NCBI GenBank assembly: GCA_963739135.1
Contig: CAVTZG010000026.1
Location: forward strand, 192,105 to 256,104
Source: an uncultured Actinomycetes bacterium
Lineage (GTDB): Bacteria > Actinomycetota > Actinomycetes > Streptosporangiales > Streptosporangiaceae
Length of the DNA stretch: 64,000 bases
Direction: 5' to 3'
Made by a program: the position numbers and the translations under genes. Positions 21,197-37,592 of this stretch are shown piece after piece. Under the pieces are notes generated by a model, which saw nothing but the letters and a program-made list of their open reading frames with translations, searched no databases and was not told the origin of the DNA. Each line of letters opens with the position of its first letter. Position 1 is the first letter of the stretch.

Positions 21197-21546
21197 ACGC
21201 CCCCTCTCCTGGTCCGGATGCTGGTGCTGCGTCCGGGTAAGCTGTGTCTTTTACGCGATGATGCGAAAGGCTCGAACCGCACTAAATTCGGCAAATATGA
21301 GACAATCGCGCCCACTACGGTGTGAGTAGTTTCGCCCGGCGGTCGTCGCCCGCACCGGGCGGCGGGTGCATGGCTGTGCATGGCGGAGGTGAGACGGCGG
21401 TGTGGCGGAAGCGTCGCGAGGAAAAGATCGGGCGTGGCCGGCGCGGGCTGTTCGCGTGGCTCATGGACCGCCGAGCCCCGGCCCGGGTACCTTGGGCTGG
21501 ATCGCCGGAGGCCGGCGAGCTCACCGAGGGGAGGCCGACCGGAGCC

Positions 21547-22131
21547 ATGCCACGTGCCTATTGCGCCCGCTGCGGCCGGCCTAATCCCGAGGACGCCCGG
21601 TTCTGCTCGAATTGCGGCACCCAGCTGACCGGGACCGGGACGATGGGCGCGGTTCCGGGTACCGGCGGCGCTCGTCCCGGCGAGACCACCTCGACGCTAT
21701 TGCCGCTCCGGCCGGATGACCCTGATTTCGGCGATGACCTCTTCCCTGACTCTGCCTCGTTCGGTGCCCTGCCTGAGGGCAGCGCGCTGCTGCTCGTCAT
21801 GCGCGGGCCCAACGCGGGCAGCAGGTTCCGGCTGGACGGCGGGCTGACCACCGCGGGCCGGCACCCGGACAGCGATATCTTCCTCGACGACGTGACGGTC
21901 TCCAGGCGGCACGCCGAGTTCCAGCGCGAGGGCGGCTTCTTCACCGTCCGGGACGTGGGCAGCCTCAACGGCACCTACGTCAACCGGGAGCGCATCGAGG
22001 AGGCGCGGCTGGCCGGCGGCGACGAAGTCCAGATCGGCAAGTTCAGGTTGCTGTTCCTGACCGGCCAGAACCTCGATCCGAGGACATCTTCCGCCGACCC
22101 TCGCGGCAGGGGCGCACAGGACTACGCATGA
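21547..22131 (+). CDS. FHA-domain protein with N-terminal zinc ribbon (GarA/OdhI-position gene)
   Basis: YCARCGRPNPEDARFCSNCG, then the FHA core TTAGRHPDSDIFLDDVTVSRRHAEF...SLNGTYVN. Start at MPRAY. Confidence 0.8.
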   Translation: MPRAYCARCGRPNPEDARFCSNCGTQLTGTGTMGAVPGTGGARPGETTSTLLPLRPDDPDFGDDLFPDSASFGALPEGSALLLVMRGPNAGSRFRLDGGLTTAGRHPDSDIFLDDVTVSRRHAEFQREGGFFTVRDVGSLNGTYVNRERIEEARLAGGDEVQIGKFRLLFLTGQNLDPRTSSADPRGRGAQDYA

Positions 22132-22997
22132 GCGAGCAGCCCGCGCGCGGTCAGTTCGGTATCGGCGAGGTGCTGGCGCAGTTGCGCCCGGAATTTCCGG
22201 ACATCAGCACATCCAAGATCCGCTTCCTGGAAGCCGAGGGGCTGATCGAGCCGGCCAGGTCGCGATCGGGCTATCGCCGGTTCTGCGCGGCCGACATAGA
22301 CCGGCTGCGTCACATCCTCACCATGCAGCGCGACTCGTACCTGCCGCTGCGGGTGATCAGGGAACGGCTGGCCGAGGGCACTCCGGCGGTCCTTGGGGGT
22401 GCCGGAGCCTTCGGCGCCCGCGGGAGTGAGAGCCCGCCCGCGAACGGCCACGGCGGCGCCGGGCGGGCGTCGGCCGACATGTCCCGGCGCCAGCTGCTCG
22501 AGGCGGCCGGAATCGACGACGCGGAGCTGGCCGAACTTGAAGAGTATGGCCTGATCCGCCGGGTAGGCCGGCAGTACGGCCCGGAGGCGCTGGCGGTGGC
22601 GAGGACGGTGGCGGCGCTGCGCCAGTACGGAGTGCAGGCCAGGAACCTGCGGGCGGTCAAGGCCGCAGCCGACCGGGAGGCGAACCTGGTCGAGCAGTTG
22701 GTGGCGCCGCAGCTGCGCCAGCGCGATCCTGGAGCCAGGGATGCCGCCACCAGGACCGCGTGGCAGATCGCGGACCTCACCTTGCGGCTGCATGCCACGC
22801 TGGTCGGATCCGCGCTGGCCGAGGCCGGGATGGCAGCTGTCCCCGGGTTCGCGGCCAGGTACCAGGCGGAGCCTGGCATATCGGAACAGGCGGCTGATTC
22901 TGGCTCCTCGGCGGGGGGCCTGCGGTCGGCTTCGGGACGATTACGGGTGTACCTTGGCAAAGGGAGAGGTGGCCAAACAGGCTCGCCAGGCACGTGA
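22128..22997 (+). CDS. MerR-family transcriptional regulator
   Basis: FGIGEVLAQLRPEFPDISTSKIRFLEAEGLIEPARSRSGYRRF. Overlaps the FHA gene stop (ATGA). Confidence 0.8.
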   Translation: MSEQPARGQFGIGEVLAQLRPEFPDISTSKIRFLEAEGLIEPARSRSGYRRFCAADIDRLRHILTMQRDSYLPLRVIRERLAEGTPAVLGGAGAFGARGSESPPANGHGGAGRASADMSRRQLLEAAGIDDAELAELEEYGLIRRVGRQYGPEALAVARTVAALRQYGVQARNLRAVKAAADREANLVEQLVAPQLRQRDPGARDAATRTAWQIADLTLRLHATLVGSALAEAGMAAVPGFAARYQAEPGISEQAADSGSSAGGLRSASGRLRVYLGKGRGGQTGSPGT

Positions 22998-23019: not shown

Positions 23020-23481
23020 ATGGAGGTCATCGGCGTCCGGGTCGAGATGCCGTCGAACAGCCCCATCGTCTTGCTGAAAGAGGCGCAGGGGGATAGGTAC
23101 CTGCCGATCTGGATCGGGGCGGTGGAGGCCACGGCGATCGCCTTCGCCCAGCAGGGGATGGTGTCCGTCCGGCCGCTGACGCACGATCTGTTCAAGGACG
23201 TGCTCGAGGTGCTGAATGTCCAGCTGCGCACGGTGAACATCACCGCGCTGCGGGACGGAATCTTCTACGCCGACCTCGTCTTCTCCAACGGAGCCGAGGT
23301 GAGCGCGCGGCCGTCGGACTCGATCGCACTGGCCCTGCGCACCGGCGCGCAGATCTTCGCCAGCGAGGAGATCCTTGACGAGGCGGGCGTACCCATCCCG
23401 GACGAGCAAGAGGACGAGGTGGAGAAGTTCCGCGAGTTCCTCGATAACATCTCCCCTGAGGATTTCGGCCGGGCCACGTGA
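23020..23481 (+). CDS. bifunctional nuclease family protein (DUF151)
   Basis: MEVIGVRVEMPSNSPIVLLKE...YLPIWIGAVEATAIA...RPLTHDL...FYADL. Confidence 0.85.
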   Translation: MEVIGVRVEMPSNSPIVLLKEAQGDRYLPIWIGAVEATAIAFAQQGMVSVRPLTHDLFKDVLEVLNVQLRTVNITALRDGIFYADLVFSNGAEVSARPSDSIALALRTGAQIFASEEILDEAGVPIPDEQEDEVEKFREFLDNISPEDFGRAT

Positions 23482-23626: not shown

Positions 23627-24286
23627 GTGGAGGTAGGCGTGGCGGTTACCAGGCATGACAGCGGCGGCGGGACGTCCGCCGCTGGCGGCCCACCAGGCTC
23701 GCTGGGCGCTCAGGGCGCCCTCTTCGAGGCTGACGAAGCTCTCGGGCTGTCTGATGAGCCCGGCCCGGGCTCGGCGGAGATCGGCTACCGCGGGCCGACC
23801 GCTTGCTCCGCGGCCGGCATTACCTACCGCCAGCTGGACTACTGGGCGCGGACCGCCCTGGTCGAGCCCAGCGTGCGGGCCGCGCACGGTTCCGGCTCCC
23901 AGCGTCTGTACAGCTTCCGGGATATCCTGGTCCTCAAGGTCGTCAAGCGGCTCCTCGACACCGGGATCTCGCTGCAGCAGATCCGGGCCGCCGTCCAGCA
24001 CCTGCGCGATCACGGCACCGAGGACCTGGCCCAGGTCACCTTGATGAGCGATGGGGTCAGCGTCTACGAATGCACCTCCGCCGATGAGGTGGTAGACCTG
24101 CTCCAGGGCGGCCAGGGAGTGTTCGGCATCGCGCTCGGCCGTGTCTGGCGCGAGGTTGAAGGAGATTTGGCCGTGCTGCCCGCCGTGCGTGCCGAGGACG
24201 GCTTCGTCGCCATGGTCCCCGGATCTGGGGACGGTGCCACGGTCCAGGACGACCTGGCCAGGCGCCGGCTGCGCCGCACCAGCTGA
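23627..24286 (+). CDS. MerR-family transcriptional regulator
   Basis: AAGITYRQLDYWARTALVEPS...GSQRLYSFRDILVLKVVKRLLDTGISLQQIR. The exact start is uncertain. Confidence 0.8.
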   Translation: MEVGVAVTRHDSGGGTSAAGGPPGSLGAQGALFEADEALGLSDEPGPGSAEIGYRGPTACSAAGITYRQLDYWARTALVEPSVRAAHGSGSQRLYSFRDILVLKVVKRLLDTGISLQQIRAAVQHLRDHGTEDLAQVTLMSDGVSVYECTSADEVVDLLQGGQGVFGIALGRVWREVEGDLAVLPAVRAEDGFVAMVPGSGDGATVQDDLARRRLRRTS

Positions 24287-24627
24287 AACGGTTACGAGCC
24301 GCAGGCAAGCGGCGGCCAGCTCCGGTTAACATGGCCGAAAGCGTTAATTCATTACCACGGCCCGCTAATACTCATTTTCGCGTTACGCCCCGGCATCGGG
24401 CCTTTCTGACGAGCAGTCCGGCCCAGGGTGACAATAGTGAGCGGGTCTGTTTAAATGCTCCCATCACCGATTCGGGCGCCGGTCCTGGGCTCGTCCGGCG
24501 GGCCGTGACTGCCGCATGCGCCGCCATCCAACCGGGGCTTGCGTCTGGGGAGGGGGATCAGGTGACCGATTGCTGGGATGCCCACGGCGAGGCGCAGGCG
24601 GCACCGTGCACTGTGGGTCGTTAGCCG

Positions 24628-26550
24628 GTGGACAATATCCATGATTCCCCCGGTTACTGGCTCGGCCTGACGGCCTCGCAGATGGGGGCCGCGCACAAGC
24701 TGTCCGGCCTGCCCAACCAGGATGCTGTGGCGGTACGCCAGGTCGGGCCGGACCTGCTCGTCGCGGCGGTCGCCGACGGCCACGGGCACCACCGTCATTT
24801 CCGCAGCGCCCGGGGTTCGCAGTTCGCGGTGACAGTCGCCTGCCAGGCCGCCGATGAGCTGGCCGTACGGCTGGAAGGTCTCGAGACGGCCGACCAGATC
24901 AGGTCGGAGGTCTTCGGTCAGCTCGTGCCCGCCATCACCGGGCGCTGGCGCGAGGCCGTGCACGACGATCACGCCGCCGAGCCGTTCACCCCTCAGGAAG
25001 AGGCGGCGCGGGCCGCCGACGACGATGTCCTGGTCGCCTACGGATCCACCCTGCTGCTGGCCATCGCCGGACGGGAATGGCTCGTGCTGACCCAGATCGG
25101 CGACGGCGACATCGTGGGCATCCGGCCCGACGGGCGCCCGCTGCTCCCGGTGCCCGGCGACCCGTCGCTGGACGGTCACCAGACCACGAGCCTGTGCACG
25201 ATCCGCGCGGAGGATGAATTCCGGGCCGGCGTGGTGCACATCGCGACCACGGCTCTGCTGGGAGTCCTGCTCGCGACCGACGGGTACGGCAACGCGCAGG
25301 CGGATGACCCGTGGGCCAACTCGGTCAGTGCCGACCTGGCCGAGCTGATCAGCGACCGGCCGCCGGAATGGCTGGCCGCACAGTTGCCGCTGTGGGCGAG
25401 CCGCTGCGCATCGACGGACGGCAGCGCCGACGATACGACCATCGCGTTGCTCATCGCACCCTCGGCGGCGGCCGAACGCCCGGAGGCCCCCACGGTGCCG
25501 GCCGGCCGTGAGCTGAGCCACGAGCCGCCGGCAGCGGCGGCCCGCAGGCTGGCCGACCCGATGGCGAAGCTGTCAGGCGAGGCGCCGACCAGGCGAGAGC
25601 AGCACCTGGAAAAAGCGGCTGTATCTGTGCATGCCGCAGCTCCGGTCATCCCGGCGGGCACCGAATCACCGACCCTGCGCGTCCGGCCCGGATCTCCGCC
25701 CGCCCCGGCCGGAACTCCGGCCGGGGCTGCGGCCGAGACCCCGACCATGACCGTCCGCACCAAGTCTCCAGCCGCACCGGCCCAGCCGCCACGGGCCGCT
25801 GCCCACGGCGCGCCGCCAGTGGCCGCTGCCCACGGCGCGCCGCCACGGGACGCTGCCCCGTCGGCGCCGTCTAGCGGTCATCATGCGACCGCACCGGCCC
25901 GCCGGTCCCGCCGGTCCCGGCGGCCGCTGGTGATCGCTGCGGTGCTCGTGGTGATCGCCGCCGCGGCCGCCATCGCCGTGACCCAGCTGGGTTCTTCGTC
26001 GGCCACGCCGCGGGCCGCTCCGTCCGTCACGGCGCATGCGTCACCGGCGGCCGGCGGGCACCCGTCTGCGACCGCCTCGGCCGGGACGTCGCCGTCCGCC
26101 GGCACGTCTCCGTCCGCCACCGGGCAGGTTTCGTGCAGTGCGCAGTCGTCAGGGACCGGAGTGCCGGTAAGCGGGCCCAGCGCCGAGATATGCGATCCGG
26201 TCACCGGAGTCGAGGTTCCAATCTCCATGACCGGCCTGCCCGGCGACGGAAAGCGCCGCGCGCTGCAGGTCGGCGATTCGATATTCGTGCTGGACGGCGA
26301 CAGGCTATGGTGGCGCGCGGTCGGCGGGCAGGACCCCAGCTGGCACGACCTGGGGTCGGCTCCCACTGGCCCGCAGCAGGACCTGTGCGCCACGCAGCCC
26401 GGTACGGTCATAGCCGCCGCGTCCGACGATGCAGCCGGGGGAGCGAGCACGCCGTGGACCCAGGTCACCGTCCCGGCGCAGTCTCCCGTGCACGTCGGAA
26501 AGGAAACGCGGGTGGCCAGCGATCCGTGCGGGACCGGACCAAATAAATGA
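24628..26550 (+). CDS. transmembrane PP2C-family (PP2C_2-type) protein phosphatase with extracytoplasmic Cys-containing C-terminal domain
   Basis: NQDAVAV...AVADGHGHH...GSTLLLA...IGDGDIV...ATDGYGN, then a Pro/Ala-rich linker, one TM helix (PLVIAAVLVVIAAAAAIAV) and a ~190-aa C-terminal domain. Confidence 0.7.
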   Translation: MDNIHDSPGYWLGLTASQMGAAHKLSGLPNQDAVAVRQVGPDLLVAAVADGHGHHRHFRSARGSQFAVTVACQAADELAVRLEGLETADQIRSEVFGQLVPAITGRWREAVHDDHAAEPFTPQEEAARAADDDVLVAYGSTLLLAIAGREWLVLTQIGDGDIVGIRPDGRPLLPVPGDPSLDGHQTTSLCTIRAEDEFRAGVVHIATTALLGVLLATDGYGNAQADDPWANSVSADLAELISDRPPEWLAAQLPLWASRCASTDGSADDTTIALLIAPSAAAERPEAPTVPAGRELSHEPPAAAARRLADPMAKLSGEAPTRREQHLEKAAVSVHAAAPVIPAGTESPTLRVRPGSPPAPAGTPAGAAAETPTMTVRTKSPAAPAQPPRAAAHGAPPVAAAHGAPPRDAAPSAPSSGHHATAPARRSRRSRRPLVIAAVLVVIAAAAAIAVTQLGSSSATPRAAPSVTAHASPAAGGHPSATASAGTSPSAGTSPSATGQVSCSAQSSGTGVPVSGPSAEICDPVTGVEVPISMTGLPGDGKRRALQVGDSIFVLDGDRLWWRAVGGQDPSWHDLGSAPTGPQQDLCATQPGTVIAAASDDAAGGASTPWTQVTVPAQSPVHVGKETRVASDPCGTGPNK

Positions 26551-26754
26551 CCGGTGCCGGCGAATGCGGTCCCACCAGCCCATTCAGGCATTCCCGATTT
26601 TGCCGCCTGAGTCCGCCCTATTTTACCGTCGCTATACCTTTCCGTACCGGGCTCATGGCACTACGATCTGGATTGTCACCGTGCCCTGCTGCTGGTGGCA
26701 GGCGAGTGCAGTGGTGACCATTCCGGGCTTGGGGAGAGCGTTGGGGGGCGAGTG

Positions 26755-28338
26755 ATGATGGCAGCAGATAGTGCTGCGGATCAGGCGGCCGCGACGATTG
26801 GCGGCCGGAAGCAGGCCCGGCCCGCGGCTGGCGGCACCGGTGACCTGACCGAGGAACTGATCGCCACCGACTCATGGACAGACGCCATGGTCGCGGCGGC
26901 CGGGATTCCCATCGTCGACGTGCCGCTGGTAACGCTGGGCGGCGGCATGGGCAGCTTCGTCACCGTGGATTACCTGCGGATCGCCGGGGTGGCCACCGAC
27001 CGGATCCGGGTGCTATCGGACATCGACTATCCGTGGCAGACCTACGAGTACCTGACCCGGGTTTCGCAGATTCCGCGCCCCGAACGGATCCGCTCCGACT
27101 CGGCCTCCAGGCCGGACAATATCTGGGGATTCCCCTCCTACGCGCTGGCCGAAGCGATCCACGACCGCACCCTGAAGCCGCTGCGCCAAGTGCTCGTCGA
27201 GCCGATCTGGGCTGATTACTACACTCCGCGAGCGGGCCAGGTCTTCACCGGCCTGGAACGTGAGGCCAAGCGCATCAGATTTTCGGACATGCTGGTCAAG
27301 GGGCAGGTCCGGATGGTGCGCCGCCGCAAGGGCGGCGGCTACTTCACGATCCTGACCCCGCCGGACGCCAAGCCGGCCCGTCGCGTGGCCTACCGGTCGC
27401 AGTTCGTGCACGTCGCGGTCGGGTATCCGGGCCTGAAGTTCCTGCCTGAGCTGCAGGCTTTCCGGACCGAGAACCAGGACTTCTACCACGTGGTCAGCGC
27501 GTACGAAGATCACGAGCATATCTACGACCGGCTCCGCGCGAAGCAGGGGGTAGTGCTGGTCCGAGGCGGCGGCATTGTCGCCTCGCGGGTCCTGCAGCGC
27601 CTGATGGACGACCGGGCCAAGTACAACTTGTCGACCGAGATCGTGCACTTGTTCCGCACCTACGTATCGGGTTCCCACGGCCCCGGCCCGTGGATGCGGC
27701 GCAAGGGCGGCAACGGGTGGGCCTACCAGGGGTTCAACTACCCGAAGTCGGTCTGGGGCGGACAGCTCAAGGCCAAGATGCGCCGCCTGGAGGGAGACCA
27801 GCGGGCCACCGAGTACAAGCTGATGGGCGGGACCAACACGCCGTACCGGCGGCGCTGGCAGCAGCAGATGAACGAGGGCCGGGCCGGCGGTTGGTACCGC
27901 GTGCTGGCCGGCACCGTCGAGCAGATGAAGGTCCGCGAGGACGGGATGGTCATCAGCCAGGTCAAGACCTCGCAGGGCGTAGTCGAGGTCGCGGCCGACT
28001 TCGTCATCGACTGCACCGGCCTGGAAGCCGACGTCTCCGAGCACCGAGTGCTGGCCGACCTGCTCGAGCATTCCGGCGCCGGGCGCAACCCGGTCGGCCG
28101 CCTGGATGTCGAGCGCACCTTCGAACTGCGCGGCACGAGCAGCGGGACGGGAGTCATCTACGCCTCGGGAGCCGCCACCCTGGGCGGCTACTTCCCCGGC
28201 GTGGACACGTTCCTGGGCCTGCAGATAGCCGCGCAGGAAATCACCGACGACCTGGCCCGGCGGGGATTCTGCCCGAAAATCGGCCCGGGCCGTTCCGTTT
28301 CTCAATGGCTGCGCTGGGCCAGGAACCAGCAGCCGTAA
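26755..28338 (+). CDS. uncharacterised FAD/NAD(P)-binding (two-Rossmann) oxidoreductase-like protein
   Basis: First dinucleotide motif VTLGGGMGSF and second LVRGGGIVASRV. VAVGYPG and DFVIDCTGLEAD sit where N-hydroxylating/FMO-type flavoproteins have their conserved segments. GGGGGCGAG RBS-like run before ATG 26755. Confidence 0.5.
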   Translation: MMAADSAADQAAATIGGRKQARPAAGGTGDLTEELIATDSWTDAMVAAAGIPIVDVPLVTLGGGMGSFVTVDYLRIAGVATDRIRVLSDIDYPWQTYEYLTRVSQIPRPERIRSDSASRPDNIWGFPSYALAEAIHDRTLKPLRQVLVEPIWADYYTPRAGQVFTGLEREAKRIRFSDMLVKGQVRMVRRRKGGGYFTILTPPDAKPARRVAYRSQFVHVAVGYPGLKFLPELQAFRTENQDFYHVVSAYEDHEHIYDRLRAKQGVVLVRGGGIVASRVLQRLMDDRAKYNLSTEIVHLFRTYVSGSHGPGPWMRRKGGNGWAYQGFNYPKSVWGGQLKAKMRRLEGDQRATEYKLMGGTNTPYRRRWQQQMNEGRAGGWYRVLAGTVEQMKVREDGMVISQVKTSQGVVEVAADFVIDCTGLEADVSEHRVLADLLEHSGAGRNPVGRLDVERTFELRGTSSGTGVIYASGAATLGGYFPGVDTFLGLQIAAQEITDDLARRGFCPKIGPGRSVSQWLRWARNQQP

Positions 28339-28384
28339 TTCGCTTACCCAAGATGCCCACGCTCCGATAGGGACAGGTGCTGGC

Positions 28385-28822
28385 ATGGTTCCCACCTTGA
28401 GCGGCCGGATACAGACCAGGATCTTCCTGATGGCTGTCGTCGGCGGCCTCATCACGCTCGTGATCGTCCCGGTCTTGCCGGGCAGCGCGCCGCTCGGCGA
28501 TAAGTACCGGGACGGCTTCCTGGTCCTCCTGAGCGTCGCCGTGCTGGGCGTGCTCTGGGAGGTTCTCTACCATTTCCTGATGCAATGGCGCTGGGAGAAG
28601 GACTGGCCGACGCTGTTCGGGCTGGCTACCGGGATACCGGAGGGTCTGCTGGTCTGGCTGCTGCTCAGCGTCGGCGCCGTGCCGGGGATCGTGGGGCACG
28701 TCGGCGGGGCCGCGTTCGGAATCCAGTTCATCCTGGTCTGGCTGGGGGTCTGGCTCGTGGCCAACGGGCCGATGCGGGTGCCCTTCATCCGGTGGCGGTT
28801 CGTGGGCGGGAGGGTCTGGTGA
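28385..28822 (+). CDS. small 4-TM membrane protein, function unknown
   Basis: 145 aa with hydrophobic helices (IFLMAVVGGLITLVIVPVL, FLVLLSVAVLGVLWEVLY and others). The stop overlaps the next gene's start (GTGA). Confidence 0.55.
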   Translation: MVPTLSGRIQTRIFLMAVVGGLITLVIVPVLPGSAPLGDKYRDGFLVLLSVAVLGVLWEVLYHFLMQWRWEKDWPTLFGLATGIPEGLLVWLLLSVGAVPGIVGHVGGAAFGIQFILVWLGVWLVANGPMRVPFIRWRFVGGRVW

Positions 28823-30258
28823 CTGAGCAAGGAATCGGTGTCCTGCCCGGCCTGTGGCCGATCCACGGGGACGGGGTGCTGGCCAGGCAGGGAGGCCTGG
28901 TCCTGCTGATCCATCCCGCGGGAGGCGCCTTCACCGACCGGCTGCTTGACCTGCTGACTGACGCGGCCCGGGCCTGCGAGACCGGCCTGCGCTTCGCCGG
29001 CCTGATCGCCGCGGAGTTCGACGCCGACGCCGCCGCGGAGTTCGACGCCGCCGCCGCGACCGGCCAGCCCGGCCCGGCCGCGGTGGCCTTCGGCCCCGTC
29101 GGCGACGGCACGGCCATCGCCATCTACGGCACCGCCTGGGCCGAGATCACGACGGCCCACGGCACGCAGCAGCTGACCGCGGGCCAGCCCTATGGCCGGC
29201 TGCAGTGCGTCCTGCCGTCCCGGGTAATGAAGGTCCGGGCCGGCGTGCAGGCCGCGGACGGCGACGCCAGCACCGATCCCTACCTGCGCCTGGCTGACGG
29301 GATGGTCCGGGCCGTGGCCCTGGTTTACGCTCCCGAAGAAACCCCGCGAAGGACCGCTGACCGGGGCAGGCGCGCGCTGCTGCCCGAGCGCACCGTCATG
29401 GACGCGGCCTGGGGCGGGCAGGCCGCTGCCCCCAGCCACCAGCTTGACCAGGCTAAGGAGGCGGCGCCGGTTCCCGCCGAGCCGTCCGTGCACCAGCAGG
29501 GGGCAGGCCAGGCCGAACAGCCGGCCTACCAGCCAGACGCCGGCCATGCCGCTTACCAGCCCGCCGCCGGCCAGGACGGTCAGCCCGCCTACCAGCCAGA
29601 GGCGGGCCGCGCCGAGCACGTGGTCGGGGACCCCTTCGAAGCCGACAGCCTGGCCGGCCGGTCGTTCATCTCCATACCGCTTATCGGCGACCAGGCCGCC
29701 AGCGAGATACCCCAGCGGGACCCGCTGCCGCTGGGCGCCGAACCTCCGGACGACCGCGAGCTCGGAACCGCGGACCAGCACCCCCAGGTCGTCGTGGGCG
29801 TCTACTGCAAGAACGGGCACTTCGACGACCCCGAGGCGCGCTACTGCGCCGTGTGCGGCATCGGCATGGCCCAGCTGACCAAGGTGCCCCAGGACGGGCC
29901 GCGGCCGCCGCTCGGCGTGCTGGTCCTGCAGGACGGTTCGGTATGCCAGCTCGACGCCGACTACGTGCTGGGCCGGGAGCCGACCCTGGAAAGCTCGGTG
30001 GCCGACGGCAGCGCCCGGCCGCTCCGGCTCGGCACCGCCTCGGGCCTGGTGTCCCGGATCCACGCCCGCGTCGAGCTCGACGGCTGGCAGGTGTTCATCT
30101 CCGACCTGAATTCCGCGAACGGCACCCAGGTCCTCCTGCCGGGAGACACCAGCGGCAGGACACTGGAGCCCGGCATCCGCACTCCTCTCGTGGCCGGGGC
30201 CCAGATCCGACTGGGCGGCGACTACGGACTCAGATATGACTCGCACCGTCACCGGTAA
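28819..30258 (+). CDS. FHA-domain protein with internal zinc ribbon and Gln/Pro/Ala repeat linker
   Basis: GTG 28819 in the frame of ORF 28585..30258. VYCKNGHFDDPEARYCAVCG, then the FHA core YVLGREP...VSRIHARVEL...DLNSANGTQV. PAYQP repeats lie upstream. Confidence 0.75.
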   Translation: MTEQGIGVLPGLWPIHGDGVLARQGGLVLLIHPAGGAFTDRLLDLLTDAARACETGLRFAGLIAAEFDADAAAEFDAAAATGQPGPAAVAFGPVGDGTAIAIYGTAWAEITTAHGTQQLTAGQPYGRLQCVLPSRVMKVRAGVQAADGDASTDPYLRLADGMVRAVALVYAPEETPRRTADRGRRALLPERTVMDAAWGGQAAAPSHQLDQAKEAAPVPAEPSVHQQGAGQAEQPAYQPDAGHAAYQPAAGQDGQPAYQPEAGRAEHVVGDPFEADSLAGRSFISIPLIGDQAASEIPQRDPLPLGAEPPDDRELGTADQHPQVVVGVYCKNGHFDDPEARYCAVCGIGMAQLTKVPQDGPRPPLGVLVLQDGSVCQLDADYVLGREPTLESSVADGSARPLRLGTASGLVSRIHARVELDGWQVFISDLNSANGTQVLLPGDTSGRTLEPGIRTPLVAGAQIRLGGDYGLRYDSHRHR

Positions 30259-30285
30259 GTGACGCGGCGGAGCTGGGGGCTAACC

Positions 30286-32295
30286 ATGAGCCTTAACGAT
30301 GTCCAGCTGCTCCTGGCGGACGTGGCCATCATCATCATCCTGGCCAGGCTGCTCGGCAGCATAGCGCGCCGCCTCGGGCAGCCGCCGGTGCTGGGCGAGA
30401 TCCTGGTCGGGATCCTGCTGGGGCCGACGTTCTTCCACGCCCGCATCACCAACGCGCTGTTCCCGCCGTCACTGATCCCCCCGCTGACCGCGCTGGCCGA
30501 CATCGGGCTCGTGCTGTTCATGTTCGTCGTCGGGTACGAGGTGGACCTGCGCCTGATCCGGGGCCGGGAGCGGGTCGCGGTGGCCGTCTCCACCGGGTCG
30601 GTCATCCTCCCGCTGGCCCTGGGCTCGCTGCTCGGGGTGTGGCTGGCCCACCGCAACCACGTGCCGCACGTGTCCACGTTCGCGCTGTTCATCGGCACCG
30701 CCATGGCGGCCACCGCGTTCCCCGTACTGGCCCGCATCCTGACCGACCGGGGCCTGCACCGCACCCGCATCGGCGGGATCGCGCTGGCCAGTGCCGCGAT
30801 AGCCGACGTGCTGGCCTGGATCTTGCTGGCGGTGGTGGTCGCGCTGGCCGGGAGTACCCAGCAATGGAAGGTGCTGCTCGCCATCCCCTATGCCGCCGCG
30901 ATGTTCGTAGTCGTCAGGCCGCTGCTGCGCAGGCTGGGCCAGAGCTACCTGAAGGCGGGCCGGCTCACCCCGAACGTCCTGGCCACCGTGCTGGCCGCGC
31001 TGCTGCTGTCCTGCTACGCCACCAACTGGATGGGCCTGCATTTCATCTTCGGCGCGTTCCTGTTCGGCATCATCATGCCCCGCGAGCCGGTCATGGCCAT
31101 GCGGGAGGAGATCCTCGAGCGCCTGGAACAGCTCAGCGTCGTGGTGCTGCTCCCGCTGTACTTCGTGGTGTCGGGCCTGAGCATCAACCTGTCCACCATC
31201 GGGCGGTCCGGTCTCGAGGAGCTCGGCGCCATCCTGGTCGTCGCCATCGGCGGGAAGCTGGTCGGCGCCTACCTGGGTGCCCAGCTCACCGGGGTCCGCG
31301 GCCGCAACGCCGGCGTGCTCGCCACGCTGATGAACACCCGGGGCCTGACCGAGCTGGTCATCCTGAGCGTCGGGCTCCAGCTGCACATCCTGACCAAGCC
31401 GCTGTACACCCTTATGGTGGTCATGGCGCTAGTCACGACCGCGATGAGCGGCCCGCTGCTGAGGTGGATCTACCCCGACAAGATCATGCAGCGCGACCGG
31501 GCCGCCGCGGACCGGGCGGCGATTGCGGGCGGATCGGCGCACCGGGTCGTGGTGCTCGTCGACCAGCCGGAGACGGCCGGGCCCCTGGTCGACGTGGGCG
31601 CCGACCTGGCTGCCACGCGGCCGGGCAGCGAGCTGGTGCTGGCCCACCTGGTCTCGATCCGGCCCGCCGGCCGCCTGGAGGTGGGCACCGGCCTGGGCGG
31701 TGAGCTGATGCAGATGACCGTGGTCATGCGCCAGCTGAACGACCTGGCCGAGCGGGCCGCGGCCCGCGGCGCCCGGGCCGTAGTGCTCTCGCGCATGAGC
31801 GACGACGTACCAGGTGAGCTGCCGTCCTTCATCGCGGCCGCCGAACCCGACACGCTCGTCCTGCGCGCCGGCGACGGGATACGCGAGGCCGCCGGGGCCA
31901 ACGACGCGATCCGCATGGTCACCGCCGGCGCCGCCCTGCCCGAGGCGCCGAGCGCCGTGGCCGTCTATTGCGGGCACGGCGGCGGCGCCACCGCCGCGCT
32001 GGATGTCGCCGCCCAGGTGGCCGCGGCCAGGCAGCTGGAGCTCATCCTGGCCGGGGACGAGGGCAGGCGGGTCCGCAACGCGGCCGCGGAACTGGCCCAG
32101 CAGGGCATCCCCGCCAGCAGCGGCCCGCCTCCGGAGGGCGCTTTGGTCATCGCGAGCGAGGACGGCGCCGCCACCGGTGCCGCCACTGGCGCCGCCGTGC
32201 ACCTGACCGTCCGGGCAGGCAGTGGCGAGGACATCGAGGAGCGTCACAGAATCGGTACCCCGGTCTCCGCTCTGGAGCCAGGAAGGCGGCAATGA
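30286..32295 (+). CDS. CPA2-family cation:proton antiporter with C-terminal cytoplasmic (Usp-like) region
   Basis: LGQPPVLGEILVGILLGP, about 12 TM helices, NTRGLTELVIL, and a ~260-aa soluble tail. Confidence 0.85.
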   Translation: MSLNDVQLLLADVAIIIILARLLGSIARRLGQPPVLGEILVGILLGPTFFHARITNALFPPSLIPPLTALADIGLVLFMFVVGYEVDLRLIRGRERVAVAVSTGSVILPLALGSLLGVWLAHRNHVPHVSTFALFIGTAMAATAFPVLARILTDRGLHRTRIGGIALASAAIADVLAWILLAVVVALAGSTQQWKVLLAIPYAAAMFVVVRPLLRRLGQSYLKAGRLTPNVLATVLAALLLSCYATNWMGLHFIFGAFLFGIIMPREPVMAMREEILERLEQLSVVVLLPLYFVVSGLSINLSTIGRSGLEELGAILVVAIGGKLVGAYLGAQLTGVRGRNAGVLATLMNTRGLTELVILSVGLQLHILTKPLYTLMVVMALVTTAMSGPLLRWIYPDKIMQRDRAAADRAAIAGGSAHRVVVLVDQPETAGPLVDVGADLAATRPGSELVLAHLVSIRPAGRLEVGTGLGGELMQMTVVMRQLNDLAERAAARGARAVVLSRMSDDVPGELPSFIAAAEPDTLVLRAGDGIREAAGANDAIRMVTAGAALPEAPSAVAVYCGHGGGATAALDVAAQVAAARQLELILAGDEGRRVRNAAAELAQQGIPASSGPPPEGALVIASEDGAATGAATGAAVHLTVRAGSGEDIEERHRIGTPVSALEPGRRQ

Positions 32296-33122
32296 TCATG
32301 ACTGGTGAACATGACGGCATCGCCGACTATCAGTTCATCCGGAAGCTCGGCGCCGGGGGCCACGGGGTGTTCTACCTCGCCCGCCGGCCGGAACGGCTGC
32401 CCATCACCGCCAACTACGTCGCGGTCAAGGTGCTCTCCGGCGGCAGCAGCCAGGATCTGTTCAGGTGGGCGCACCGCGAGCTCGCTGCGTTCGCCGCGGT
32501 CAGCTCGCCCTACCTGGTCAGCCTGTACGACGCGGGCCAGCAGGGCGAGGAGGTGTACTACTCGATGGAGTACCTGCCCGGCGGCTCGCTGGCCGAGCCG
32601 GCCGAGCCGCTCAGCCGGGCCGCCGCCTTGAAGGCCATGGCCGACGTCTCCCGCGCCGCGCACGCCCTGCACGAGGCCGGCATCGCCCACCGTGACATCA
32701 AGCCGGGCAACGTCCTGCTGCAGCCCGGCGGGGCCAAGCTGGCCGACCTCGGCCTCAGCCACGTGCTCTCACCCGGGATCACCGTCACCGGCATGGGCCC
32801 CGCGGGCGATATCGGCTACCTCGACCCGTGCCTGATGCGCGGCGATCGCCCGTCCCGGGCCAGCGACGTGTTCTCGCTGGGCGCTACCTTGCACTTCGCC
32901 CTGGTAGGCGAGGGCCTGTGGGGGCAGCTCCCGCAGGATGATCCGGTCATGGCCATGCGCACGGTCGTGTCCCATCCGCCCGCCATCTCTGCCCAGGTGG
33001 ACCCGGCGGCCCGGGATATCATCGCCTGGGCCATCGCCGCCGACCCGGCCGAACGGCCCGGCACCGCCCTGGAGCTCGCCGAGCGAATCGAGGAGCTCGC
33101 TATGGCCTCCGCCCCCGATTAG
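32292..33122 (+). CDS. stand-alone Ser/Thr protein kinase catalytic domain (276 aa)
   Basis: GAGGHGVFY, VAVKVL, HRDIKPGNVLL and ADLG. The ATG overlaps the antiporter stop (ATGA). Confidence 0.85.
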   Translation: MIMTGEHDGIADYQFIRKLGAGGHGVFYLARRPERLPITANYVAVKVLSGGSSQDLFRWAHRELAAFAAVSSPYLVSLYDAGQQGEEVYYSMEYLPGGSLAEPAEPLSRAAALKAMADVSRAAHALHEAGIAHRDIKPGNVLLQPGGAKLADLGLSHVLSPGITVTGMGPAGDIGYLDPCLMRGDRPSRASDVFSLGATLHFALVGEGLWGQLPQDDPVMAMRTVVSHPPAISAQVDPAARDIIAWAIAADPAERPGTALELAERIEELAMASAPD

Positions 33123-33133
33123 CGCATATAAAG

Positions 33134-33172
33134 TTGGGGGGTCCGGGGGGGACGACCCCCCGGGAAAAGAAT
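33134..33172 (-). repeat. G-run/C-run dispersed repeat, partial copy (intergenic)
   Basis: ggggggtccgggggggacgaccccccgggaaaaga. Its reverse complement matches cttttcccggggggac...ccccccggacccccc of copy 1. Confidence 0.65.
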
Positions 33173-33213
33173 GCCTGGCCGGTAGCGGCAGCCGGCCAGG
33201 GACGGAGACGTGG

Positions 33214-34521
33214 ATGACATCGGCGACGAGGAGCGAGCCTGACGGGCCGCGCTTTGGGCCTTACATCCTGACGGCCGTCATCGGCCGCGGCGGGATGGGC
33301 GTCGTCTACCGCGCCTACAACACCGTCAAGGCGCGCACCGTCGCCCTCAAGGTGCTGACCCCCGAACTGGCCGCGGATCCGGTGTACCGGGAACGCTTCC
33401 GCCGCGAGTCCCGGCGCGCGGCCCGGCTCAGCGAGCCGCACATCATCCCCATCCACGACTACGGGCAGATTGACGGCCGCCTGTTCATCGACATGCGCCT
33501 GGTGCAGGGCACCGACCTGTCCACCATGCTGGAGCGCGACGGGCCGCTGCCGCCGAACGGGGCGGCCTGGGTCATTGCCCAGGTCGCCTCGGCACTGGAC
33601 GCCGCGCATGCCGACGGGCTGGTGCACCGGGACGTCAAGCCGTCCAACGTGCTGATCACCGGGCATATCCAGAGCATGCCGTTCGCCTATCTGATCGACT
33701 TCGGCATCGCCCGCGCGGTCGGCAGCGTCACCGTCTCCACCGCCACCAGCGCCGTCGGCACCCTGGCCTACATGGCGCCGGAACGGATCAACGGGGCGCC
33801 CGGCGACCACCGGTCGGACGTGTACTCGCTGGCCTGCGTGCTGTACGAGTGCCTGACCGGGCACGAGCCGTTCACCGGGGAGATGGTGGCCGTCATGTGG
33901 GCCCAGATCAACTCCCCGCCGCCCGCGCCCACCGCGGTCAGGCCCGGCCTGCCCGCCACGGTCGACCAGGTCATCGCGCGCGGCATGGCCAAGGACCCGG
34001 CCAGCCGGTATAGCACCGCGGGCGAGCTGGCCGCCGCCATGCTGGCCGCGGTCGATCCCAGCGTACGGCAGGCCCGGGAGCCGGAACCCGGCCCGCCGAC
34101 CGCGGTCACCTACGTCCCGGCCAAGGGGGACCGGCCCGCACCGCACCAGACGGGCGCCGACGTCCCGCTGTGGGAAGGTGACCCGGCCGGCCGGACCCAG
34201 GCCGCGCTGCGCGCCATCGTGGCCAACCCCCAGCTGGGGGTGGCCGCCCTGTCCAGCTCGCAGGCCATGTCCGCCGCGCTGAAGGACCTGCTTCCCGGTC
34301 GGCCCCGGGAGACGAAGGTGCTGGTGGCCGCGGCCGAGGTGGGGCTGACCGCGGCCCTGAAGTATCACACGGCGCGCGGCATGGACGTGACTACCGCCCG
34401 CCGGCGGGCGGCGCGGTCCTTCGCCAAGCACACCGGGTTCGCGCCGGAAGCATGCAGCTGGGCGGTCGACCACCTGACCGCGGCGCTCGGCCTGGACGCC
34501 GGCTCCGAGGTAGCCCGGTAG
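33214..34521 (+). CDS. Ser/Thr protein kinase with ~150-aa C-terminal domain of unknown function
   Basis: [31 protein letters not shown] and GTLAYMAPE. No TM helix was seen. Confidence 0.9.
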
Positions 34522-34584
34522 AACCGGGGCGTCGGGTCCCACAATCTGGTCCCGCTCGGGTAAGATCTCAATTGCTGATGACAC

Positions 34585-34745
34585 CGGCCGGGAGAGATCC
34601 CGCATTGCTGCGGGCGCCGAAGGGGCAACATCCCCGGAACCTCTCAGGCACACGAACCAGCCGGAACAGGCATCTCTGGAGCGGGCCCAGCAGGCCAAAG
34701 GGGCCGCGACAGACGGGGAGCCAGCGACCGCGCTCGTCCGGGAGG
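34585..34745 (+). ncRNA. glycine riboswitch (one canonical aptamer plus a degenerate second element) in the gcvP leader
   Basis: ccGGGAGAGatcccgcattgctgcgggCGCCGAAGGGGCAAcatccccggaaccTCTCAGGCAcacgaac matches the glycine aptamer core. It is followed by CTCTGGAGCgggcccagcaggCCAAAGGGGCcgcgac, which lacks the CTCAGG element. It lies directly upstream of gcvP. Confidence 0.75.
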
Positions 34746-34751
34746 CTCTCT

Positions 34752-37592
34752 ATGACAGACTTCGCTGCTCGTCACATCGGGCCGTCCGAAGCCGCGCAGC
34801 GGCAGATGCTCGGCAGCCTCGGCTACGCATCACTCGACGAGCTCATCCGCGCCGCCCTGCCAGAAGCAATGGGGCCCGCAGGGACCGAGGCGGCGCAGCT
34901 GAGCCTGCCCGCCCCGCTGTCCGAGCCGCAGGCACTCGCCGAGCTGCGCCGGATGGCCGGCCGGAACCAGGTGCTGACCTCGATGATCGGCCTGGGCTAT
35001 TACGACACGGTCACCCCGGCCGTCATCCGCCGCAACGTGCTGGAGAACCCGGCCTGGTACACGGCGTACACCCCGTACCAGCCGGAGATCTCGCAGGGCC
35101 GGCTCGAGGCGCTGCTGAACTTCCAGACCATGGTCGCCGACCTGACCGCGCTGCCGTGGGCCGGCGCCTCACTCCTCGACGAGGCTACCGCCGCGGCCGA
35201 GGCCATGACGCTGGCCCGGCGCGCCGCCAGGAAGGGACACGTCTTCCTGGCCGACGCCGACTGCCTGCCGCAGACGCTCGCCGTGCTGCGCACCAGGGCC
35301 GAGCCGCTCGGCATCCACCTCGTCGTCGAACCGGTGACGGCCGAGGCCATCGCCGCTCAGCCCGACCTGTTCGGCGTGCTGCTGCAGTTCCCCGGCGCGT
35401 CGGGCGCGGTCACCGACCCGGCCCCGCTGATCGAGGCGGCGCACGCGCGGGGTGCGCTGGCCGCGGTGGCCGCCGACCTGCTGGCCCTGACCCTGCTGCG
35501 GCCGCCGGGCGAAATGGGCGCCGACATCGCGGTGGGCTCGACCCAGCGGTTCGGCGTGCCGCTGTGGTTCGGCGGCCCGCACGCGGGCTACATGGCGGTC
35601 AGCGACCCGCTCAAGCGCCAGCTGCCCGGCCGGCTCGTCGGGGTCTCGGTAGACGCCGACGGGCGGCCCGCCTACCGCCTGGCCCTGCAGGCCCGTGAGC
35701 AGCACATCCGCCGGGAAAAGGCGACGAGCAACATCTGCACCGCGCAGGTGCTGCTCGCGGTGACCGCCGCCATGTACGCGGCCTACCACGGGCCCGACGG
35801 GCTGGCTGCCATCGCACGGGCCACTCACCGTAGCGCCGCTGTCCTGGCCGCCACCCTGCACGATTTTGGGCACCGAACGGGCCGTGGTGACTTCTTCGAC
35901 ACGATCCGGATCGTGTTCGGTGGCGGACGGGACGAGGCGGCCAGGGCGCTGGACCGGGCCCGGGAGGCGGGGTACAACCTGTACCTGGCGCCGGACGGCG
36001 CGCTGCAGGTCAGCTGCGACGAGACCACCGCCGACGACCAGCTGCGGGAGGTCGTGGCCGCCATCTGCCAGGTGGAACGCCCGGCCGACGTGCAGCTGTC
36101 GGATGCTTCGCCCGACGTGCTGCCCGCTGCGCTGCGGCGCACGTCGGCATTCCTCACCCATCCGGTGTTCAGCGCCCACCGGAGCGAGACCGCGATGCTG
36201 CGCTACCTGCGGCGGCTGGCCGATTTCGACATCGCCCTCGACCGGTCGATGATCCCGCTCGGCTCGTGCACGATGAAGCTGAACGCGGCGGCCGAGATGG
36301 AGCCGATCAGCTGGCCGGGGTTCGCCGGCCTGCACCCGTTCGCCCCGCCGCCGCAGGCGGGCGGCTACGAGGAGCTGATCGAATCGCTCGAGGTCCGGCT
36401 GGCCCGGCTCACCGGGTACGACGCGGTATCCGTGCAGCCGAACGCCGGCTCGCAGGGCGAACTGGCGGGCCTGCTGGCCATCCGGGCCTACCACGCGTCC
36501 CGCGGCGAGGACGACCGCGACGTCTGCCTGATCCCGGAGTCGGCGCACGGCACCAACGCGGCCAGCGCGGTGCTGGCCGGGCTGCGCGTGGCGGTGGTCA
36601 AGTGCGGCTCTGACGGCGCCATCGACCTGGGCGACCTGGAGGCCAAGCTGGAGGCCCACCGGGGGCGGGTGGCCGCCATCATGCTGACCTATCCGTCCAC
36701 GGCCGGCGTCTACGAGCAGAACGTGAGCGCCGCCTGCGAGTCGGTGCACGCGGCGGGCGGCCAGGTGTACATCGACGGCGCGAACCTGAACGCGCTGGTC
36801 GGGGTGGCTACCCTGCCGTCGTTCGGCGCGGACGTGTCGCACCTGAACCTGCACAAGACGTTCTGCATCCCGCACGGCGGCGGCGGTCCCGGCGTGGGGC
36901 CGGTGGCCGTCCGCGCGCACCTGGCCGACTTCCTGCCCGGGCGCGGGGTGACCGGCCCGGTGGCGGCCGCACCCTACGGGTCCGCGGGCATCCTGCCCAT
37001 CTCGTGGGCCTACATCGCGATGATGGGCGCGGACGGGCTGCGCCGGGCCACGAGCGTCGCCGTGCTCTCGGCCAACTACGTGGCCAGGCGGCTGGCGCCG
37101 CACTACCCGGTGCTGTACACCGGGCGGAACGGGCTGGTCGCGCACGAGTGCGTCATCGACCTGCGCCCGCTCACCCAGGAGACCGGGATCACCGTGGACG
37201 ACGTGGCCAAGCGGCTGGTCGACTACGGGTTCCACGCGCCCACCATGTCGTTCCCCGTGGCCGGCACGCTGATGATCGAGCCGACCGAGAGCGAGAGCCT
37301 GGATGAGCTCGACCGGTTCTGCGACGCGATGATCTCGATCAGGTCGGAGATCGCCCGGGTGACCTCCGGCGAGTACGACGCCCACGACAACCCGCTGAAG
37401 AACGCCCCGCACACCGCCGAGATGCTCATCTTGGGGGAGTGGAAGCACCCTTACGACCAGCAGGCGGCGGCCTACCCGCCCGGCGTGGACCGCCGCGCCA
37501 AGTACTGGCCGCCCGTGCGCCGCATCGATCAGGCCTACGGCGACAGGAACCTCGTCTGCTCCTGCCCGCCCCCCGAAGCGTTCGAGAGCTGA
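34752..37592 (+). CDS. gcvP: glycine dehydrogenase (aminomethyl-transferring), P-protein
   Basis: [41 protein letters not shown] and [16 protein letters not shown] (PLP lysine region). 946 aa. Confidence 0.95.

Follow-up and report, generated by a model that had tools for sequence, protein, structure and literature searches.

A putative class B flavin monooxygenase and its four-transmembrane partner encoded with FHA, kinase and PP2C genes in an uncultured actinomycete and in other phyla

Introduction

In Escherichia coli, the flavoproteins KefF and KefG, which have a flavodoxin-like fold, activate the CPA2 antiporters KefC and KefB, and in Bacillus subtilis the class B flavoprotein CzcO enhances the antiporter CzcD, a member of the CDF (cation diffusion facilitator) family. 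Hanks-type kinases and FHA proteins are common in bacteria, but what they control physiologically is known in few cases. We describe here a locus that encodes genes of both kinds, located in a 64,000-nucleotide stretch (the window; G+C content 70–73%) of contig CAVTZG010000026.1 from an uncultured actinomycete. The locus comprises a trio of genes encoding a flavoprotein (P1), a four-transmembrane protein (P2) and an FHA-domain adaptor (P3), together with genes for a PP2C_2-family phosphatase, a CPA2 (NapA-like) antiporter and two Ser/Thr kinases, STK1 and STK2 (Table 1). Structure modelling and residue conservation indicate that P1 has the fold and predicted cofactor motifs of a class B (N-hydroxylase-like) FAD/NADPH monooxygenase; it is almost always encoded with P2, as an obligate pair, and gene order and domain fusion tie it to FHA, kinase and PP2C signalling. 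That the trio is central to a conserved membrane flavoenzyme module under phosphorylation control is a proposition that we regard as evenly balanced.

The CzcO–CzcD and KefF/G–KefC/B systems resemble this module in that they pair an NAD(P)H flavoprotein with a co-encoded cation/proton antiporter, which in the case of KefC and KefB is also of the CPA2 type. However, they have no P2-like partner and no FHA, kinase or PP2C genes, and in the module the antiporter association is not universal. With the N-hydroxylating monooxygenases (NMOs; PvdA, SidA, KtzI, NbtG and DesB; PF13434), P1 shares the two-Rossmann fold, the GxGxxS/N and GxGxxA motifs, the His before the second of these motifs, and, in part, a D-x3-x-A-T-G-x motif. 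P1 differs from the NMOs in its low identity to them (11–16%), its greater length (by ~80–110 residues), its own invariant motifs, and a second strand of the FAD Rossmann unit that does not end in a conserved acidic residue, as well as in its obligate four-transmembrane partner, the FHA or kinase fusions of its relatives, and the absence of siderophore genes nearby.

The adaptor P3 resembles GarA and OdhI in logic, these being stand-alone FHA proteins that are switched by Ser/Thr kinases and bind enzymes directly; however, GarA targets soluble enzymes of the tricarboxylic acid cycle and glutamate metabolism that are not co-encoded with it, whereas translational coupling joins P3 to the target presumed for it, and its disordered linker is long. 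In DgcB (FHA-GGDEF) and EmbR an FHA domain is linked to an output domain, the FHA–P1 fusions described below are built in the same way, and Rv1747 is another FHA-fused effector; we know of no FHA effector, and found none, with a flavin monooxygenase-like output domain. FraH of Anabaena combines a zinc ribbon, a Pro-rich linker and an FHA domain. ArnA and ArnB of Sulfolobus acidocaldarius, a zinc-finger and FHA protein and a vWA protein, act with kinases and a phosphatase in the control of archaellum gene expression (PMC6509490). ArnA is comparable to P3 as a small zinc-finger and FHA adaptor that reads the phosphothreonine marks of dedicated Hanks-type kinases, although P3 has another type of zinc knuckle (C-x3-H ... 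C-x2-C) and an additional N-terminal domain, and the ArnA/ArnB system has no flavoenzyme and no membrane partner. The domain–linker–FHA order of P3 is also seen in EsrG1, which consists of a pseudophosphatase, a disordered linker and an FHA domain (PMC13622651); however, the N-terminal domain of P3 has no detectable PP2C similarity, and vWA, MoxR and beta-propeller genes are absent from the window.

Flavoprotein P1

The AlphaFold2 model of P1 was built from an alignment of 67 diverse full-length relatives (26–62% identity), which are also the basis of the conservation counts given for P1. The model is of high confidence (predicted local distance difference test, pLDDT, 92.3; predicted template modelling score, pTM, 0.92) and contains two Rossmann folds. 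An earlier note on this DNA, made from the letters alone, had pointed to two dinucleotide-binding motifs laid out as in N-hydroxylating or flavin-containing monooxygenases (FMOs); both motifs are present (LGGGMGSF, residues 61–68; RGGGIVASRV, residues 270–279), and the layout agrees with the best structural matches, PvdA, SidA and KtzI. In a Foldseek search, the top 44 matches were all N-hydroxylating flavin monooxygenases (PvdA, SidA, KtzI, NbtG, DesB), with E-values from 1.8e-18 to ~5e-14 and TM-scores of 0.50–0.63 by query and 0.63–0.77 by target; the best match was PvdA (3s5w; E 1.8e-18, TM-scores 0.60/0.74, 15–16% identity), and a putrescine N-hydroxylase followed a few ranks down. Disulfide reductases, including dihydrolipoamide dehydrogenase, matched the model at lower TM-scores (0.43–0.46).

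Clustering at 90% leaves more than 2,194 homologues of P1, none of which has a name, and clustering at 50% leaves ~561 representatives. Searches of Pfam, NCBIfam, PADLOC and PDB sequences gave nothing significant for P1; a profile of the 67 family members gave nothing under E 0.16 against PDB sequences. The sole profile match of P1, to a Trp_halogenase fragment (E 9e-4), fails the cut-off, and two distant relatives match PF13434 (Lys_Orn_oxgnase) at sub-threshold E-values of 0.056 and 0.25. P2 is likewise unmatched in Pfam, NCBIfam and PADLOC, and for P3 only the FHA domain is matched in these profile collections. P1 and P2 are two new protein families without a current profile.

The FAD motif of SidA is GxGxxS, and NMOs carry the motif D-x3-(L/F)-A-T-G-Y. 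Class B monooxygenases have two Rossmann motifs of the form GxGxxG/A, in which NMOs often have N as the last residue of the first and A as the last residue of the second, and an FMO motif (FxGxxxHxxxY/F) that precedes the second Rossmann motif and of which NMOs retain just the His (PMC7570161). In P1, the residues of the predicted FAD site are highly conserved (G62 in 66/67, G64 in 67/67, G66 in 59/67 and S67 in 63/67), as are those of the predicted NADPH site (G271 in 67/67, G273 in 66/67 and A276 in 61/67). A degenerate FMO-type motif lies 18 residues ahead of the second Rossmann motif, with its F and G positions replaced (A249 in 57/67, Y250 in 65/67, H253 in 65/67 and Y257 in 62/67). R301, at the end of the strand after the second motif, is present in 59 of the 67 relatives and is a candidate ligand of the 2'-phosphate of NADPH. 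The segment D415-F-V-I-D419-(A/C)-T421-G422-L (T in 63/67, G in 67/67) resembles the NMO motif in part, with Asp in place of L/F and Leu in place of Tyr. P1 combines the two Rossmann motifs, the FMO-motif His and the three-dimensional fold of NMOs, as expected for class B, but it does not match the family profiles and has a partner, regulation and context of its own; we assign it to a deeply divergent new branch of class B/NMO-like flavoproteins, set apart from the NMOs proper. The family also has invariant motifs of its own (R111-L-R113-S-D-S ... D-N-I-W124-G-F-P127 and Q325-P-F-N-W-P-K), which are taken to line a specific, predicted active site, and a conserved Trp-rich C-terminal helix (S514, W518, W521).

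Since its nearest structures are ornithine, lysine and putrescine N-hydroxylases, P1 could be read as an ordinary siderophore or secondary-metabolite N-hydroxylase of the PvdA/IucD type whose neighbours are incidental. This is highly improbable: there is no significant Lys_Orn_oxgnase profile match, the pairing with P2 is conserved, and FHA and kinase domains are fused to relatives of P1. A siderophore role is further disfavoured because none of the inspected contexts contains genes for nonribosomal peptide synthetases, NIS synthetases or acyltransferases.

The N-terminal tail of P1 is of low complexity and variable in actinomycetes, and ends in a conserved G-D-L-T-x-E-L-L motif (residues 28–35). 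This motif marks the onset of the folded part and is not conserved in the FHA-fused relatives; its Thr, which is followed by Leu at +3, could be bound by an FHA domain. In the Longispora locus (L045, 6611–7906), a second flavoprotein (Pfam NAD_binding_9, FAD-NAD(P)-binding, E 2e-31) is encoded directly upstream of P1, with no counterpart in the other annotated loci. In L089 (7001–7375), the stand-alone P1 relative P0249 (622 amino acids) has a beta-rich N-terminal extension of ~125 residues with no Pfam match, which may be a degenerate FHA-like domain.

The P1–P2 pair

Gene order was compared in 80 species-level actinomycete loci and in a distant set of 11 contexts (L081 onward) fetched via divergent P1 relatives. 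P2 follows P1 in 79 of the 80 actinomycete loci and in 10 of the 11 distant contexts (L081–L084, L087–L089 and L091–L093), where E-values to the P2 profile range from 1e-28 to 1e-65 (3e-5 for a truncated copy in L083). The distant pairs extend down to 27–30% P1 identity and to 30% G+C, and their stop and start codons often overlap. Both genes also occur, unannotated, on one Nonomuraea gerenzanensis record of a plasmid collection. The two families are spread across Actinomycetota, Cyanobacteria, Rhodothermota (Rubricoccus) and unassigned low-GC organisms. Most of the 80 loci retain the order P1–P2–P3, and the trio occurs together across many genomes. The locus nearest to that of the window (L001, P1 96% identical) belongs, like the window's other nearest relatives, to uncultured Streptosporangiaceae-like actinomycetes.

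P2 has more than 3,888 homologues, all of ~145 amino acids, unnamed and without a Pfam domain. It has four hydrophobic segments, and positive charge is gathered at the N- and C-termini, on which basis both ends are predicted to be inside the cell. The conserved motifs of P2 lie in the N-terminus, loop 2 and the C-terminus (PTLxGRIQTR, QxRWEKDWP and NGPMRVPFIRWRFxGGR), and across relatives they take the form P-T-L-x-G-R-I-Q-T-R, Q-x-R-W-E/D-x-D-W-P and M-R-x-x-F-x-x-W-R-F/Y-x-G-G. All of the invariant motifs fall on the predicted cytoplasmic face, and both outer loops vary in length, as would be expected of a surface on which a cytoplasmic protein docks. Polar residues are also conserved within the helices (W58, E/D59, Y62, H63 and E86-G87), so the role of P2 may go beyond anchoring. 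Lys72, in a loop of P2, was considered as a hydroxylation substrate and rejected, this position being S, H, R or K in distant homologues.

In a context of 30% G+C (L093, 1985–4845), the pair is followed by genes for an FMN_bind-like protein (E 9e-4), an ApbE flavin transferase, and an RnfD/NqrB-like protein with NAD_binding_1. Genes of this kind serve flavinylated electron transfer at the membrane, and the arrangement was seen once.

P1–P2 might instead be a membrane NAD(P)H:quinone-type or other electron-transfer oxidoreductase (NDH-2/SQR-like), in which P2 would provide the anchor and acceptor site and no oxygen would be inserted into a substrate. Such enzymes are of the same two-Rossmann superfamily, and dihydrolipoamide dehydrogenase also matches the P1 model. 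The polar residues in the P2 helices, the Trp-rich helix at the end of P1 and the L093 neighbourhood are consistent with such an enzyme, although the last is one case; the best structural matches of P1 are monooxygenases, with TM-scores clearly above those of the disulfide reductases, and H253-x3-Y257 and the NADPH-type R301 are class B monooxygenase traits. We consider an oxidoreductase of this kind to be decidedly improbable.

Phosphosignalling genes and the adaptor P3

Among the 67 divergent relatives of P1, N-terminal FHA domains, one or two per protein, are fused to the enzyme in 28, and a protein kinase domain is fused to it in one. The functional tie between enzyme and FHA reader that the earlier note had proposed is thus upheld by fusions in 29 of the 67. 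Named examples are those of Microseira wollei (Cyanobacteria) and Rubricoccus marinus, which are annotated merely as 'FHA domain-containing protein'. Directly upstream of the FHA–P1 gene in L081, L084 and L088 is a gene for a small FHA protein with a CxxC...CxxC zinc ribbon; these non-actinomycete partners give weak DZR matches. In the actinomycete P3, the zinc knuckle precedes the FHA domain.

STK1 is identified as a Hanks-type kinase by profile (Pfam PF00069 Pkinase, E 5e-33) and by its catalytic motifs (HRDIKPGN, and a DLG variant of DFG). Orthologues of STK1 (49–95% identity, against ~30% for generic kinases) are encoded beside the trio in ~70 of the 80 loci, in four arrangements: downstream of the antiporter, divergent from the antiporter, directly after P3, or divergent upstream of P1. 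STK1 is the putative dedicated kinase of the module. Close orthologues of STK2 (67–94%) are restricted to loci like that of the window. The PADLOC matches of the kinases are to generic PD-T4-6 kinase models.

The PP2C_2 phosphatase consists of an N-terminal PP2C_2 domain, a Pro/Ala-rich linker, one hydrophobic segment and a C-terminal domain. Its orthologues lie upstream of P1 in window-like and Nocardioides loci and are present in some lineages only; the phosphatase is likely the eraser of the module. In Nocardioides loci (L047, 3654–5275), a vWA-domain gene precedes the PP2C_2 gene upstream of the module, its stop codon overlapping the PP2C_2 start, a pair that recalls the vWA/FHA/kinase/phosphatase cassettes of the ArnA–ArnB type.

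Orthologues of P3 occur in 72 of the 80 loci. The FHA domain (PF00498, E 4e-7, residues 408–466; 30.8 bits against a cut-off of 20.7) has G385-R386, S412-R413-x-H415 and N434-G435-T436 invariant among 63 P3 orthologues, an intact phosphothreonine-binding set, and by profile and conserved residues it is a predicted phosphothreonine reader. Foldseek matches to this domain were MDC1, ArnA (5a8i), Rv0020c and GarA (7rj3, 6i2p), at E-values of 1e-6 to 1e-5. Among the same 63 orthologues, C330, H334, C343 and C346 of the putative zinc knuckle are invariant or at least 90% conserved, with two short strands modelled, and P3 has no Pfam zinc-ribbon match. The length of 479 amino acids, the FHA domain and the AYQP repeats reported in the earlier note are as described there, whereas the knuckle begins with C-x3-H rather than CxxH.

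The N-terminal domain of P3 was also noted previously, at ~170 residues; its folded part is ~135 residues (10–142) and is modelled as three strands, two helices and six strands. The alignment used for the AlphaFold2 model of P3 consisted of database matches of lower diversity than the locus orthologues. Foldseek of the whole P3 model returned FHA matches only and none for the N-terminal domain. This domain was considered as a PP2C pseudophosphatase, as in EsrG1, and rejected (hhalign probability of 0.2% against the neighbouring PP2C_2; no Pfam match). It is absent in Micromonosporales, and appears dispensable because P3 in this order has just 189–225 amino acids (L037, L045, L060, L064 and L079). 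Between the N-terminal domain and the knuckle is a Gln/Pro linker with AYQP repeats (residues 145–319) that is predicted to be disordered. Within the linker, the motif P-F-E-(A)-x-(L)-L (residues 281–291; F283 at least 90% conserved) is retained even in the ~190-residue Micromonosporales P3 and may be a docking motif.

Antiporter

The antiporter gene encodes a Na_H_Exchanger domain (Pfam PF00999, E 6e-52) and a Usp domain, matches NapA in the PDB (4bwz/5bz2; E 1e-21 over residues 20–404), and is of the CPA2 (NapA/Kef) type. The antiporter adjoins the trio in 69 of the 80 loci, in either orientation. In Rubricoccus marinus, which belongs to another phylum, one cluster encodes PP2C_2, FHA, P1 with two FHA domains, P2 (39% identity), Na_H_Exchanger and Pkinase, six parts that match the module of the window.

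Given that the antiporter is coupled to the trio in the window and adjacent to it in those 69 loci and in Rubricoccus, and that it has Usp in place of the usual KTN/RCK nucleotide-sensing domain, P1 could be mainly a regulatory redox- or NADPH-sensing subunit, and not a biosynthetic enzyme, that reports the NADPH or flavin state to the antiporter or the kinase. The name 'CzcO' of COG2072, a conserved domain of class B FMO and Baeyer–Villiger monooxygenase proteins (PMC7570161), would suit such a role. However, the obligate partner of P1 is P2 and not the antiporter, most distant P1–P2 contexts have no antiporter, and the conserved P1 motifs outside the cofactor sites (R111-L-R-S-D-S, D-N-I-W-G-F-P and Q-P-F-N-W-P-K) are more like those of a substrate site; we consider a sensory subunit unlikely.

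In L082 (8948–10288), a TauE/SafE-family membrane protein is encoded in the antiporter's place after P2, the gene order being Pkinase-P1, P2, TauE, Pkinase, FHA protein and Pkinase. In L088 (13468–15909), a large spermine-synthase-like protein is encoded near the pair.

Proposed function

In the proposed mechanism, P1 would dock on the conserved cytoplasmic face of P2, probably via its Trp-rich C-terminal helix, and the two together would make up an enzyme at the membrane, in which NADPH and O2 serve to oxygenate a substrate at an amine or another heteroatom; this substrate would be membrane-associated or reach the enzyme through P2. STK1 would write phosphothreonine marks and the PP2C_2 phosphatase would erase them; the FHA domain, which belongs to P3 or, in other phyla, to P1 itself, would read the marks and switch or assemble the complex. 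The output could be ion or pH homeostasis, or export, suggested because the NapA-like antiporter is co-translated; this is the least certain step. That P1–P2 is an unrecognised two-component membrane flavin monooxygenase of several phyla, wired directly to Hanks-kinase, FHA and PP2C signalling, and controls cation/proton antiport or another envelope property through its product or redox turnover, we put forward as a tentative reading.

The earlier note had read the trio as phosphorylation-gated recruitment of the enzyme to the membrane by its FHA protein. FHA-gated recruitment is less likely than constitutive docking by P2, which is favoured because P1–P2 pairs exist without visible FHA or kinase genes and because the P2 motifs are all on the predicted cytoplasmic face; the role of the FHA domain is more likely to be that of coupling the complex to its kinase.

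Several findings weigh against the proposed module. P1 falls outside the profiles PF13434 (Lys_Orn_oxgnase), PF00743 (FMO-like) and PF13738, and at position 88, where the second strand of the FAD Rossmann unit ends, 50 of the 67 relatives have Gly and the usual acidic residue is not conserved, so that flavin binding could be weak or atypical. The cyanobacterial FHA–P1 genes have no P2 inside 7 kb, and around the P1–P2 pairs of L087, L089 and L091 no gene for an FHA protein or a kinase is visible. Most contexts outside the actinomycetes lack the antiporter (none in L081, L087–L089 or L091), and that of Rubricoccus is just 26% identical to the antiporter of the window; with this patchy distribution and low identity, the link to ion homeostasis may be lineage-specific. 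The P1–P2 and P1–P3 contacts are also ones that we only infer.

The gene set itself is real, conserved across phyla and uncharacterised, and flavin monooxygenases and FHA signalling are each of a known kind. Our search of the literature returned no description of the P1 family or of the module, nor of a bacterial flavin monooxygenase family as a dedicated output of Ser/Thr phosphorylation, and to our knowledge there is no other such family. Here, the signalling output is readable from the genome, because many lineages fuse the enzyme to FHA or kinase domains and the enzyme is almost always paired with one membrane protein, and the two families offer a specific model, that of a phosphorylation-gated membrane flavoenzyme. 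If the antiporter link is true, redox/NADPH chemistry, phosphosignalling and ion homeostasis would be connected in soil actinomycetes. Class B monooxygenases are also biocatalysts of interest, and a divergent branch with a membrane partner is relevant to enzymologists.

Gene layout and neighbouring genes

Table 1. Positions of the module genes, their domains and motifs, and neighbouring features in the window.
Feature	Position	Strand	Basis
GarA/OdhI-like zinc ribbon and FHA protein	21322–22131	+	
MerR	22128–22997	+	
Bifunctional-nuclease-domain protein	23065–23481	+	
Second MerR	23627–24286	+	
PP2C_2-family phosphatase, 640 aa	24628–26550	+	Pfam PF13672, E 2e-28
P1, 527-aa flavoprotein	26755–28338	+	ATG start; AlphaFold2 and Foldseek
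P1 G-D-L-T-x-E-L-L motif	26836–26859		
P1 first dinucleotide motif G62-G-G64-M-G66-S67 (predicted FAD site)	26938–26955	+	Conservation
P1 degenerate FMO-type motif A249-Y250-E-D-H253-E-H-I-Y257	27499–27525	+	Conservation
P1 second dinucleotide motif G271-G-G273-I-V-A276 (predicted NADPH site)	27565–27582	+	Conservation
P2, 145 aa, four transmembrane segments	28385–28822	+	ATG start; hydropathy
P3, 479-aa adaptor	28819–30258	+	GTG start; Pfam FHA
P3 N-terminal domain, residues 10–142	28846–29244	+	AlphaFold2, pLDDT 75–95
P3 linker motif P-F-E-(A)-x-(L)-L	29659–29690		
P3 putative zinc knuckle/ribbon C330-x3-H334 ... C343-x2-C346	29797–29868	+	Conservation
P3 FHA domain	29890–30243	+	Pfam, Foldseek
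CPA2 (NapA-like) antiporter with C-terminal Usp domain	30259–32295	+	Pfam, PDB match
STK1, 276-aa Hanks-type Ser/Thr kinase, catalytic domain only	32292–33122	+	Pfam
STK2, second Ser/Thr kinase, 435 aa	33214–34521	+	Pfam Pkinase, E 2e-44
Glycine riboswitch aptamer	34579–34669	+	Rfam RF00504, 61.5 bits
gcvP	~34752–37592		

A G-rich ribosome-binding site lies just 5' of the P1 ATG, and the length of P1 is the same in an independently called, 97%-identical homologue. The spacing and overlap reported previously for the 145-residue, four-transmembrane P2 were verified: its start is 46 nt past the P1 stop, and its stop overlaps the P3 start as GTGA (28819–28822), a 4-nt overlap conserved in 51 of 69 loci. 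The start residue of P3 is the same in the gene calls of other genomes. The antiporter GTG follows immediately after the P3 stop, and the antiporter stop is overlapped by the STK1 start as ATGA (32292–32295). P3, the antiporter and STK1 are thus translationally coupled in the window; the earlier description of a coupled trio holds for the three genes, and the unit is larger, running past 30258 into the antiporter and kinase. STK2 begins 91 nt downstream of STK1. A promoter and terminator scan of 24300–35000 gave no sites.

The glycine riboswitch aptamer upstream of gcvP is the sole Rfam match within the window and marks the end of the module operon. The GarA/OdhI-like gene lies ~5 kb upstream of the module and is followed by the MerR, nuclease-domain and second MerR genes, a run that matches the mycobacterial order Rv1827–Rv1830, with gcvP corresponding to Rv1832; the module is therefore located inside this conserved block in this lineage. 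In Streptosporangium, Nocardioides and others, the module is located elsewhere than in the GarA–gcvP block.

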